Origin: a virus
Lineage: Duplodnaviria > Heunggongvirae > Uroviricota > Caudoviricetes
Length of the DNA stretch: 27,166 bases
Virus record (IMG/VR): IMGVR_UViG_2526164690_000039
Strand: one strand, 5' to 3'
Shown: in pieces, positions 1-6,000 of the stretch
Numbering within the stretch: the first letter of the stretch is position 1
Layout of the letters: every line of letters starts with the position of its first letter
Position numbers: made by a program

Positions 1-3000
1 TCAGGCTTGAATACCTTTATCGAATCCCGGTAATAAAAACTGTCCCTGTCTCTCCAGACGTTCCAGCTTTGCAAGCAATTGAGGTTTTTTCGTTCTCCCC
101 CAGCGATTGAGCAGACGGCCTGACATGCTGGCGACATCCTTCTCTTTCATGTACTCCAGCATTACGGCGTTACGTTCTGCTTCATAACTTTCGCTGTACT
201 TACGGAGTTCTGCTGACATCCAGTTAAACGCATTGATATAGGCTTCTTTAACAGCATCGGCTTTTGCCCCGTTAAATCCCATAACCAGCATAACGAAGCC
301 ACTAAAGTCCATGCGGTAGTAAATCTGTTTCTTGTCAAAAATACCTAAGTCATTGATTTTCTCGACGGCCCAAAAATGGGTTGTCGAGAATTCCTCAGAA
401 CATCTCAAACATTTAATAGCCCTAATCACATGCTGATGGCGTTTACCAAATGCCCTGGCAATCTGGAAGGTGTCAGTTACCGGTTGACCTTCTGCTGCGG
501 TAACTAACTGGCGAAAGTCGAAGTCATGATTCGCAATTAATTCATTCATGGCGTTGCCTGCTTCTTTGAAATGAACCTTTGCCGCACAGGAAACCAGCCC
601 ACCGAGGCTCGCCAGCACTAACTGGTATCCTCAAAGGCCCATTCCAAAGGGTCAGGTTCGGTGTTTATTGTGCGCTGCGGTGCGCGGTGAAATACCGGTA
701 CAAAAATGCCCCGCATCTGCGAGGCATTTTCCTGAAAGTCACTTGTTAAATTTCAGTGAAATTAAAATTATTTTAAGCACTGCGTCCTGATGTATTCCTG
801 CAGGTAGTTAACCTGCGCGGTTATCTTGTCGATTCCACCTCGGAGACGGTAATAATTGAGTTCAGCATCTGATGTAAGTCCTGGGCTTTCTCCATCGCCC
901 ATGCTGCTGGCTCCGGTCGTTGACTTTGCACAGGTGGCGGAGACTTGCAGGCGCTTACGCCCAGCAGAAACATCAGCACGGAGACTTTCGATAGTCGCAT
1001 TAGCATCAGCAAGCTCCTTTGTGTATCTGGCGTCAAGTTCTGCTACATCACGTTGCCGCTTCTGCATATCAGCGATGATGGATGTGGCTTTATCGCGCTG
1101 CTCTTTGTAGGCGATGGCGTTATCACGGTAATGATTAACAGCCCATGACTGGCAGGCGATAATGCAGATAACCAGAGCGGAGATAATAACGGTTACCCTG
1201 CTCATTGTTGCCCCCACAAACAGACTTCACGCTCAATCTCGCGGCGAGTCATCAGCCCTTTCCATTGCTTACCGCCAGCGTATGTCCAGCGCCGTAGCTG
1301 ATCACATGCGCCTTTGATATCGCCCTGGTTTATTTTGCGAAGAAGCGTCGATGTTCTGAAATTGCCAGCGCCCACGTTGTAAACGAACGAGTAAAGAGCG
1401 CCGCGCGTTGTTTCCGGTATATCGACGTTGATGTACGGGTTAATTTGTCTGGCGACCGTGGCAAGGTCTTTATTCAGGAGGGCTTTGCATTCTGCTTCGG
1501 TATACGTTTTACCGGGCATGATGTCTTTTCCGGTGTGTCCGTGACATACAGTCCATACGCCAACGATATCTTTGTATGGTATGTAGCTGACACCTTCCAG
1601 ACCATCGTTACCACCTGGACCAGTGATGAGCACAGACGCTATGGCAACAGCCCCACCACCAATAGCAGCTGCAACAGCCTTGCGTAATGACGGCGACATT
1701 ATTCACCTCTCGCAGCCTTACGCTTATCTTCTTTAATCTTGAAATAAAGATTTGTCAGATACGTCAGCAGGCCAAACAGCAGACTTCCCAGCACACCTAT
1801 TGCCACCCACTGGGACGGAGAGACTTTGTCCAGCAGCTGCAGTAACCAGTATCCCGTCCCCACCGCTGACGTGGTGTATGACACACCTGTTGTGATTTTT
1901 TCCATCTGATGTATGTCTCCGTCACCGCCGACAGAAAATGAAAGTAAAGAAAACAAAAAGCCGCCAGTGTCACCCACTGACGGCCAACGCCGGGAGCCGT
2001 GATTATGGCATTCAGGCTCTGCTAAAAATGCCAGATAACATTCCGGCTCCCCTGATTCAGGTTATAAATGACACAATATCTTGACAACATCCGTCACTGT
2101 CTGTCAGAAAATGTACTGCCATATAGAAGCAACGTGTGAAGTACATCTATCCTTTTGAGCCAGCACCTCTCCACCGAAAGTCAGTGCTGGCTGTTTTTTT
2201 CCTTAATAAGGCATCTGTAACTGAAACAATCCGCATATTGATAATATATTGACAGGCATCATTGCTGTCTGTGAAAAATAAGTCTCTACAAACATATAAG
2301 GCCTCTTAGCCAGCGTCTTCTTTTTCAGGTCAGTCGCTGGCTTCTTTTTATTATGCTGCCGGTGCATTTATCTCCAGCATCAGACTTTCTATCTCAACGC
2401 CATACGCTGCATTTTGTAACATCCGTCAGCGTCAGCGCATTCAGTCCCAGTGTCAGACTGTCTTTTATAACCTGGAATGCCGGGCCAGCCACTCCATTCA
2501 GTTTCGGAGTAACCGTGGCACTGCCGGCGGTGAACACCAGCTCCAGCGTCTGCCAGTCGTTACCGTAATCGCCGAACTCCCCCAGCTTCGTGTTTCCGGC
2601 TTTCCTGTGATGCATCAGATTCACTCTGCCGTCAGTGGTCTGAGTGAAGTACGACATCAGGAACGGATTACCGGTACCCGTCATCGCCACACCATCAGGA
2701 ACGGGAGCATCCGTATACAGATAAATCCCCAGCCCGAACTGATTGTTGGTCAGTGCGCCTGGCAGGCGGAACTTACAGGTCAGTCTGCCGCCCTGTGTCA
2801 GCAGGGTAATTGCGTCATCCACCGGATGCGTCAGGGACCAGGTTTTATTGCTCTGCTTGGTGATCTTAAATACACCATCTGACAACTGAATTCCGCCATC
2901 CTTAATGCTCCAGCCCTGCGCAGCAGCCTCTCCGGCTGCCGGCAGCAGGGAGATTGTGCGAACGGACGTATCTGCAGACGGACCCGATGGCGTGTTGCCG

Positions 3001-6000
3001 CCGGGCGAGGGTTTGATTTCCGGTGCCTTACCACTGATGAAGGCTGAGGTGCGCCCGGCTGCGTTCAGAATAGCGGTTGCCAGACGATCCGGAATAATGC
3101 TCCTGCGCGCCCATGAACTGAAATGTGTCGGGCGGTTTGATGATACCTGGTTTCCATTCGTTCTCGATGCCGCACCGTAATATCCTGATGCCGGAATATC
3201 CGGATCTTCTGCCGGCGCGTTAGTGGCGGTATTGACGCCGTTACCGTCTGTCATGAAGGGCACAAAATAAACGCCCTCACTCTCCCTGTTTTTATACCCG
3301 CCGTACACGGTGTCGTACTGGGTAGCGTATGTATTTTTCCAGTAATACGTCGTGTCACCACAAACCCACGGCACATCTGCAGCACTGCCACCATGGCACT
3401 GCGCGTTAAACACGGAGAGGTCAGCACGAAACTGTGTCAGCATGGCTGTAAACAGCGCAGGTTGCTGTACGTGGGTGGCGGCGCTCATGTCAAACTCACC
3501 CTGCATCCAGCAGACGGCCAGCAGAACGTTTTTGGGATTTTTCTGCAATGCCGTCTTTTGTGCGGGAAATCAGATCCTGATATAACGGCTTGCCCACCCC
3601 CCAGCGTGCCGAATCCTGACTGGCCCCCCGTGGACTCGCTGAATGTCCCCTCCGCGCCCTGGGTAAATGCCGAACCACCACGACAGCATGGTACCAGCAG
3701 GATCCCCGCGTTATTCGGGATATACGGGAGCAGTTTTTTGGCAATATGTAAACCCTGGCCGACACAGCCGTACTGCCCTTTGCTCAGGTCAGCCCTCGGA
3801 TGATTCAGCGTACTCATATCCTGCACATCATGCAGACAGTGGTCAGCCGGAATAATATCGTTATATCTGCAGGCAGCCCCGCCCGGCGTCACTGTACTGC
3901 GGCGCGCCAGCTGTTTAATGCGCGGATCCGGAGCATCGTATGAATCCGGCAGCGGAAGCCCTTCACCGTAAGCCCTTCACCGTAAGCCATGGCATTGGAT
4001 TGCCCGGCCAGTACGATGACGTAGTACCAATCCGGCTCAGATGAAGGGCCGACCTGTGGCTCTCCTTCAATAGCCACCGCCTACATCAGTGTGTACGGCG
4101 TAATGGCAACCGGTCCGCCGTATGGCTGCCAGCCCTCTTTCAGTTTGTGTGTCAGCTTTTCCGCAAGGTCTGACGGCGACGCCGCCCTGACAACATCGTA
4201 ATGTTTAATCGACATCGAATTTCTCCCGTGTAGAGGAACAGAGTTAAAAAAGCCGGAAGCGGAATCAAATCACAGGATGACCATCTGCCAGTGGCAGGTC
4301 ATAAAAAAAAGGCTGCGCAATGCGCAGCCAGAACTCACAAGGAAAATGATAAAAGGAATAACACTAGTGATGTACGCATGGCGCCTCCCGCTAAGTTCTG
4401 CAATGATCAAACAGAACTCACTACGTGCCCTTAAAACTCGATCATTTAGCCCCTCCAAGGAGGATTCACCATGCGGTTGATTTTTTAATAAACAGTAAAC
4501 AAAAAAGTCAAGAATTATTCATTCTGTTCTTTCATCATCGGCCACAGCAATACCACAATGCCGCAGACCAGAGCGCCATCAGTCAGTACCAACATTATCC
4601 TGCTGGTGAAATCCATCATCACCATCACCAAAAGCAGGATCACAACAGCAAGCAGACACAGTTTATAAAACAATGTTCAGAAAACGCATTCAGCATGCCT
4701 AAGGTTCTATTCCTACGAATAGCCAACTTGCAACTTAAAATATTATTTATGCAGCCAATTAAATTCTGGTCCTTACAATATCAACCTGAAGATTCTTATC
4801 TTGTGCTGATTGATAAATGACAAACCTTTTACTACCTGCATTGAAAGAAGTAGTCAAAACCAGACAATTATCATAACGAGCAAGAACATAATACCAACCA
4901 TCATTATAATTAATCATTTCATATTCTTTCTTAAACTGTGGTTTGTAATATCCTGTCAGAAATGAAAAAAGCCAAAAATATGCCACAAAAGCAATCATCA
5001 CAATCTCAAAAAAATGTTTTTTTATAAATGGCTTATCATAGAAGCATGATACCGATAAAAATCGCCCATAAGATCTTATCGAAATTGTAACCGCCAGCGC
5101 AATCGCTGCTGACAGTAGCAAAAGAGGTACCTGAATCTTCTGTCTCAATATAGAAAACTCAATAATTGCCGGCACAAACAATAATTCCACAGCAAAATAA
5201 AGGCGAAATACATTTAGCTCTTGCATAGAATGTTTTCTTTTCACTGCGAAAAAGAATACAACACCAATACCCCAACCGATAAGAAATATAGCAATGACGA
5301 TAACTGCAAAAAATAAACTTCTGGCAACATCATCAACACCTGCACCTACAATCCACCATGGGAAGCCGTAGTAAAAAGAAGTACCCCATCCATAGAAATA
5401 AGCACTCCCCCATCCAAGGCATCCCATGTAGGCAATAAAAAGTGAAGAACTCCTGAGCAGCGCACCATCCTTCATAACCACCCCAATACAAGATGATAAC
5501 ATTGGCTTACAACTCATAACAAAAGCAATTCAATGCCGTCAAGAGGTTACAGGCTAAAAAAACTCTATTACATAGCAGCCAGCATGTTTACCGTACAAGT
5601 ACAACTCAGGGCATAAAAAAACCCACTCGGCAGCGGGTTTATACATTTTTTACAACATACCAAATTTGCATGAAGTATATGGCTTTTAATCCAGTTTTGC
5701 AATATTTTGCTGTAAAAATGCTGCCTTTTGTTTTGAACGTGTTCTCGTCACAAGCAATAAAGCATCACTATCAAGCTGTAGAAAAATGTGCTTCATTGCA
5801 ACCCAGCGTTCAGTAAATGTCTCGGACCAGTTTTTTGTTGTCACTCCCACCAATGATGCCAGTGTCTGGTATTCATAGGCCTCACGCCCTGCAAGTTCGC
5901 TCTTCACATCCTGTGCAGCCAGCCAGATTAACGTCTTCAGGCGATCCAGTGTCTTACCTGCAATTTTTCTGTTACTTAACAAATCTTTAAACTCGCTCCA

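Follow-up and report, generated by a model that had tools for sequence, protein, structure and literature searches.

Introduction

Has the esterase gene of a lambdoid prophage been disabled by a succession of independent mutations, or by a single mutation on which the errors of a draft assembly are superimposed? This question is raised by the IMG/VR virus record IMGVR_UViG_2526164690_000039 (Duplodnaviria; Heunggongvirae; Uroviricota; Caudoviricetes), a stretch of 27,166 nucleotides that was analysed at its full length and is referred to below as the window. Its minus strand carries a nanS-p-type gene. The intact product of such a gene is expected to be a sialate 9-O-acetylesterase made up of three domains: DUF1737 at the N-terminus, a catalytic SGNH/SASA domain like that of NanS, and a lectin-like domain at the C-terminus. 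An earlier note, made from the sequence alone, described this gene as inactivated by several independent lesions, namely an in-frame amber codon, a perfect 14-bp tandem duplication, and two further frame changes at homopolymers.

We conclude, with a probability of about 0.82, that the duplication is real and is the core inactivating event, and that the other four disabling changes in the window most likely do not represent further decay of the gene but stem from consensus errors in a multi-copy repeat that the assembly resolved poorly. The feature itself is already known: dozens of RefSeq genomes flag the allele with the real lesion as a frameshifted pseudogene, and the locus is unremarkable, a dead copy of a prophage nanS-p gene that is well known and belongs to a well-described family. 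The nanS-p genes of enterohaemorrhagic Escherichia coli (EHEC) are multi-copy and redundant. Because the family is redundant and the allele has already been flagged, the finding carries little biological weight. It does call for caution: pseudogenes with multiple hits in the repeated prophage regions of old draft genomes can consist of one real lesion plus consensus errors, and a cheap k-mer check against complete genomes tells the one from the other.

The shared duplication as the core lesion

The window was aligned with two intact alleles, those of phage 434 and of the O111:H8 strain 7-55 62A (WP_000023272.1), and with six related chromosomal copies (O26:H11 11368, H19, O103 RM8385, O111:H11 8D, 88.0502, and 88-19539). 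Relative to the intact alleles, the window contains five disabling differences (Table 1), and its open reading frame (ORF) is left in four pieces, the first of 44 codons and the others, in different frames, of 62, 135, and 384 codons. When all five lesions are repaired in silico, a 616-aa ORF results, the product of which matches the phage 434 protein except at two residues. The GQSN, GGSAF, and WMQGEFD blocks are each present and lie in three different frames, as had been described earlier. Thus, where a NanS-p gene has one uninterrupted ORF of approximately 616–645 aa, there are four pieces in the window and two in all 81 complete genomes that carry the duplication (see below), and the window copy is unable to encode a single-chain enzyme.

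Among these differences, the duplication alone is found in independent genomes, so that “several independent lesions” is not supported as a description of the biology of this locus. The duplication was confirmed directly and by Tandem Repeats Finder (positions 3956–3988, period 14, 2.4 copies, 100% match), and no tandem-repeat match was returned for any of the dinucleotide shuffles of the window. It is present in six of the six related chromosomal copies that were aligned, in each of which the NCBI Prokaryotic Genome Annotation Pipeline (PGAP) records a 1,865-nt “frameshifted” pseudogene. Complete genomes were searched with a 34-nt junction query, which shares no 28-mer with the single-copy allele and so cannot seed there; it was used in place of an 82-nt query, for which BLAST joined the pieces flanking the duplication. 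Of 5,426 complete E. coli genomes, exactly 81 contain the junction 34-mer (strains of O26, O103, and O111:H11), and in each of these it is annotated as the same frameshifted DUF6645 pseudogene; the two-copy junction is identical in all 81 carriers, and the 108-aa product encoded by the duplication allele is on record for 258 contigs. The presence of the duplication in these genomes bears out the earlier judgement that it is unlikely to be an artefact.

The intact sequence contains two copies of GGCT spaced 14 bases apart, and the duplication lies between these 4-bp microhomologies, as would be expected if it arose by replication slippage. The intact allele of 7-55 62A and the duplication allele differ by one nucleotide in addition to the duplication, which is therefore regarded as the result of one recent hit on a gene that was otherwise intact. 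This duplication allele is inherited clonally in O26, O103, and O111:H11 strains, and the duplication could serve as a marker of the prophage in them. Single private nucleotide substitutions are found inside the pseudogene in 88.0502, 88-19539, and H19 (window positions 4004, which is locus position 7006 of 88.0502, 3788, and 2935), and the one in 88.0502 changes codon 71, the glycine of the GQSN motif, to Glu. These changes are consistent with slow neutral drift after the duplication. The 7-55 62A allele itself (locus positions 6797–8647) lies within a rearranged remnant of a prophage, immediately adjacent to int and ybhC, with a frameshifted rrrD next to it.

The duplication starts eight codons after Ser73, so that translation would give 81 native and 27 aberrant residues followed by a stop, and the remaining 541-codon open frame is without the nucleophile. 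We take Ser73 to be that nucleophile, and Ser73 and His359 to correspond to the Ser/His catalytic dyad of NanS. Because no single chain carries both residues, it is straightforward to infer from the reading frames that the esterase activity of the duplication allele would be lost. The cell would be left with a 108-aa stub containing DUF1737 and, at most, a separately initiated C-terminal piece lacking the nucleophile. This loss is probably buffered, because the related genomes listed hold 9–15 nanS-p-like places each. There is a small chance that the stub, which keeps the DUF1737 domain, would have a residual function; the DUF1737 domain of the phi24B homologue has been described as a capsid-decoration module (2026 preprint, bioRxiv 10.64898/2026.04.10.717836).

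According to the same preprint, stand-alone DUF1737 proteins are common, which lends some appeal to the idea that the fragments are normally separate genes, or that they are rejoined by programmed frameshifting or readthrough, so that the locus would be functional. This idea is hardly credible for the present locus, because intact single ORFs of 616 aa exist at an identity of at least 98.7% among the same neighbouring genes, the SASA domain is itself interrupted, with the breaks lying between its catalytic Ser and His, and five separate recoding events would be required. Furthermore, PGAP labels the allele that carries only the duplication as a pseudogene.

Four lesions confined to a draft contig

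The E. coli DEC8C draft contig AIGH01000007.1 (GCA_000249835.2; a 2012 draft) has, from its position 357 onward, the same sequence as the window. DEC 8c, of serotype O111:[H11], was isolated from calf scours in South Dakota (PMC2713265). Lesions 1, 3, 4, and 5 of Table 1 are private to this sequence. Lesion-specific 35-mers for these four changes were concatenated into one query, which found them in 0 of 5,426 complete E. coli genomes, whereas the same method finds the duplication 81 times. The private protein fragments (EHW23937–EHW23939) are each present, by exact protein look-up, on one contig only, that of DEC8C.

The ninF region is interrupted at window positions 9745–11072 by an ISVsa5 element (IS10-like, with a 402-aa DDE transposase). 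This insertion is common to the window and to the complete genomes of 88.0502 and 88-19539 (bovine, South Dakota, O111:H11), is absent from the other relatives aligned, and is useful as a clone marker. Both of these clone-mates disagree with the window at every private site. The resequencing that the earlier note had proposed as a refuting test has in effect been performed by the independent complete genomes, in which the duplication stays and the stop and the other shifts vanish. The four private lesions are thus most likely artefacts.

This comparison also revises the account of the individual lesions. The in-frame TAG is indeed reached by the minus-strand frame from the ATG at 4215, but it can no longer be held an unlikely artefact, since it is as private to the draft as the single-base shifts and occurs in 0 of the 5,426 genomes and in neither clone-mate. 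Two frame changes had been placed at G6 and A5 homopolymers at approximately 3535–3630; there are two in that interval, and one does lie in the G run (lesion 3), but the other is an inserted base without any change of homopolymer length (lesion 4). The run at 3597–3602, which had been suspected as a lesion, is identical in the intact alleles and is native. Similarly, the extent of 2394–4215 formerly given for the gene falls short of the native span, 2351–4215, because the stop at 2394 is made by an overlooked deletion of two bases in an A6 run (lesion 5). This −2 shift replaces the last 21 codons, and creates a premature stop at 2394–2396 in place of the native stop, which ends at 2351.

The homopolymer shifts had also been considered as possible phase-variable slippage, and this candidate was rejected: all relatives examined have the same G5 and A6 runs and the same two-copy 14-mer, and the G6 and A4 states occur in 0 of 5,426 complete genomes.

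Another possible source of the private differences is a paralogous nanS-p copy, either because the assembler mixed in reads from another prophage or because gene conversion from a more decayed paralogue has taken place. The material for such mixing is abundant, as the closest genome has about 15 copies of the segment and nanS-p is found at 10–13 places in the O26 and O103 relatives listed. However, the 5,426 complete genomes hold 7,378 places similar to the gene, and no 28-mer containing any of the four lesions is found in them, which makes a paralogous origin very improbable. Every private variant was, in addition, compared with the alleles of phage 434, of an Stx1a phage (a Shiga toxin phage), and of JLK-2012, and none matched.

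Table 1. Coordinates of the nanS-p-type pseudogene, its lesions, and the flanking phage genes in the window.
Feature	Position	Strand	Remarks
Whole nanS-p-type sialate O-acetylesterase pseudogene	2351..4215	(-)	1865 nt; intact gene 1851 nt / 616 aa; from end-to-end alignment with the phage 434 SASA esterase coding sequence and the PGAP pseudogene of O26:H11 11368
First fragment	4081..4215	(-)	44 codons from ATG 4215, DUF1737; ended by TAG 4081-4083
Lesion 1: CAG>TAG	4081-4083	(-)	stop at codon 45; CAG in all relatives; G>A at 4083 private to window
Lesion 2: perfect 14-bp tandem duplication	3957-3984	(-)	AGCCCTTCACCGTA x2 on the + strand, then AGCC; frameshift
Lesion 3: G5>G6 on the coding strand (C6 on +)	3624-3629	(-)	+1 frameshift, window-private; G5 in intact and duplication-only alleles
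Lesion 4: one inserted base (A on the coding strand, T on +)	3554	(-)	+1 frameshift, window-private; beside an A4 run, not a homopolymer length change
Lesion 5: A6>A4 on the coding strand (T4 on +)	2413-2416	(-)	-2 frameshift, window-private; A6 in all relatives
Largest remaining ORF	2394..3548	(-)	384 codons; WMQGEFD block and C-terminal lectin-like DUF6645
Catalytic serine codon (Ser73, motif GQSN)	3997..3999	(-)	aligned to the GQSN serine of NanS in 3PT5
Catalytic histidine codon (His359, motif THFSS)	3123..3125	(-)	aligned to the HFSS histidine of 3PT5; frame differs from that of Ser73
Late antiterminator Q	5686..6375	(-)	upstream of esterase; PGAP annotation of the collinear 88.0502 locus; Pfam Phage_antiter_Q in DEC8C gene calls
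Lysis cassette	768..1905	(-)	downstream of esterase; class II holin 1699-1905, endolysin 1202-1699, Rz-like lysis protein 768-1205

Clustering of the private changes

Relative to the consensus of all relatives, 18 changes are private to the window, and 16 of these are located within positions 1953–6826, a segment of 4.9 kb that comprises 18% of the window (binomial P ~1e-10). The density of private changes is 3.3e-3 per base in this segment versus 9e-5 in the other 22 kb of the prophage, and each relative has 0–1 private changes where the window has 16. Indels account for 10 of the 16 clustered changes and are mostly situated at homopolymers, with two adjacent A runs one base short each at 1953/1954; five of the seven private substitutions are A:T>G:C transitions. 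The segment is also the most repeated part of the prophage, being present at 15 places in the closest genome, that of 88.0502, as compared with 3–5 places for a control segment of equal length in the relatives listed. Taken together, this pattern is most likely that of an early draft in which the consensus of a multi-copy repeat had poor support.

Alternatively, all five lesions may be real, in which case the DEC8C lineage would have gained, once the shared duplication was in place, a nonsense mutation, three frameshifts, and 12 neighbouring changes, through either progressive decay or a localised mutation shower in this late-operon segment. Several observations favor this alternative and weigh against consensus error. 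The intact ORFs within 1953–6826 amount to 1,713 nt and contain none of the 10 indels (P ~0.013 by length and ~0.03 by homopolymer count), and the three private substitutions in intact ORFs are synonymous (two) or conservative (one Ser>Thr), which is what purifying selection on real mutations would give. The A:T>G:C transitions and the homopolymer indels also fit mismatch-repair-deficient replication, and the pseudogene does drift in the relatives, as the single private substitutions described above indicate. Because the 2.3 kb nearest the contig end are error-free, a bad contig end does not by itself explain the site of the cluster. In addition, DEC8C may not be the same strain as 88.0502, which has a single nucleotide substitution of its own in the gene at window position 4004.

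On the contrary, real mutations would have to account for the steep difference in density between the segment and the remainder of the prophage, for the near absence of private changes from the same segment in the relatives, and for a ratio of 10 indels to 6 substitutions that is far from natural divergence. They would also have to account for the shortening of two adjacent A runs by one base each, for fragments that are known from a single draft contig, and for variants that are missing from every complete genome searched, including those of the two clone-mates with the same insertion element. Thus, real additional decay is unlikely, and it retains a small but appreciable share of the probability because the indels avoid ORFs, the substitutions are mild, and the contig end is clean.

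It is tempting to speculate on what the 16 changes would represent if they were real: a mutation shower over approximately 5 kb of late-operon DNA in DEC8C, with a spectrum like that of mismatch-repair deficiency and sparing the intact ORFs. In a milder variant of this speculation, the duplication would be a precisely revertible off-state that still yields a stand-alone 108-aa DUF1737 capsid-binding protein. We consider this scenario, too, to be improbable.

Identity and genomic context of the gene

The earlier assignment of the gene to a NanS-p-like family with DUF1737 and an SGNH esterase domain is borne out by the comparisons made here. Over their full length, 1,822 bases of the gene are 98.7% identical at the nucleotide level to the phage 434 counterpart, which is annotated as an intact, 616-aa “SASA family carbohydrate esterase” (CPT_434_71, UMO75335.1); the yjhS/nanS-p genes of Stx1a phages are 95% identical to the window gene. 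In Pfam, the intact phage 434 protein contains DUF1737 (residues 4–49), SASA (66–262), and DUF6645 (467–577), and the intact allele is matched by the NanS structure 3PT5 (residues 60–379, E = 1e-122) and by the C-terminal lectin-like jelly-roll domain of NanS-p, 6YP6 (residues 421–613, E = 1e-29). This is the three-domain architecture described for NanS-p (PMC10462455). In the window, DUF1737 (PF08410) is detected on the 44-aa first fragment at E = 2.4e-15, as compared with E = 2.1e-15 on the intact phage 434 homologue, and DUF6645 (PF20350) on the 384-aa fragment at E = 8.6e-18. SASA (PF03629), which is detected on the intact homologue at E = 1e-12, is reached by no single fragment of the window in Pfam; both catalytic motifs are encoded, in different frames.

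The NanS-p proteins of EHEC/Stx phages, such as 933W NanS-p and phi24B vb_24B_21/gp84, have the same three-domain architecture and are encoded in the same slot, between Q (or stx) and the holin gene. By contrast, the window copy is interrupted, with Ser73 and His359 in different frames, and is predicted to be incapable of acting as a member of this group. The chromosomal NanS (YjhS; 3PT5) has a homologous catalytic domain in which GQSN and HFSS are both conserved, whereas it lacks the DUF1737 and lectin-like domains and belongs to the chromosomal nan regulon, not to prophage cargo. The closest counterparts are the RefSeq pseudogenes annotated as “DUF6645 domain-containing protein, frameshifted” (for example, ECO26_RS04555 in O26:H11 11368 and KP533_RS13620 in O111:H11 88.0502), which share the locus, the prophage, the duplication, and the 1865-nt span with the window gene, but are devoid of its amber codon, two +1 insertions, and −2 deletion.

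The gene order around the esterase is Q, a TfpB-like membrane protein, DUF3927, esterase, holin, endolysin, and Rz. The esterase therefore lies between Q and the holin gene, in the Q-to-lysis cargo slot of a lambdoid prophage, as stated earlier; this is the typical location of NanS-p, and the order is the same in phage 434. Stx1a phages have the same gene order with stx1AB upstream. The prophage terminates at int beside ybhC, that is, at the lambda attachment region. An antisense “hypothetical protein” pseudogene of 242 nt (window 4192–4433, plus strand; 88.0502 locus 7194–7435) is annotated by PGAP over the start codon of the esterase in all relatives whose annotation was read, and it is probably an annotation artefact.

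Several other features of the prophage were observed. A second cargo gene, encoding an LpxR-family lipid A deacylase, is located on the opposite strand (window 6849–7808, plus strand) between a truncated antiterminator fragment and YlcG/Q, and phage 434 has it too. A TolA-like “cell envelope biogenesis” gene (window ~18462–19430, plus strand) contains an internal stop in all relatives whose annotation was read (a PGAP pseudogene), and a degenerate (AGAAGC)n repeat lies inside it at 18974–19057. Finally, iteron-like direct repeats of 20 bp/39 bp at window positions 14187–14264, within the lambda O-type replication gene, presumably mark the origin of the prophage.

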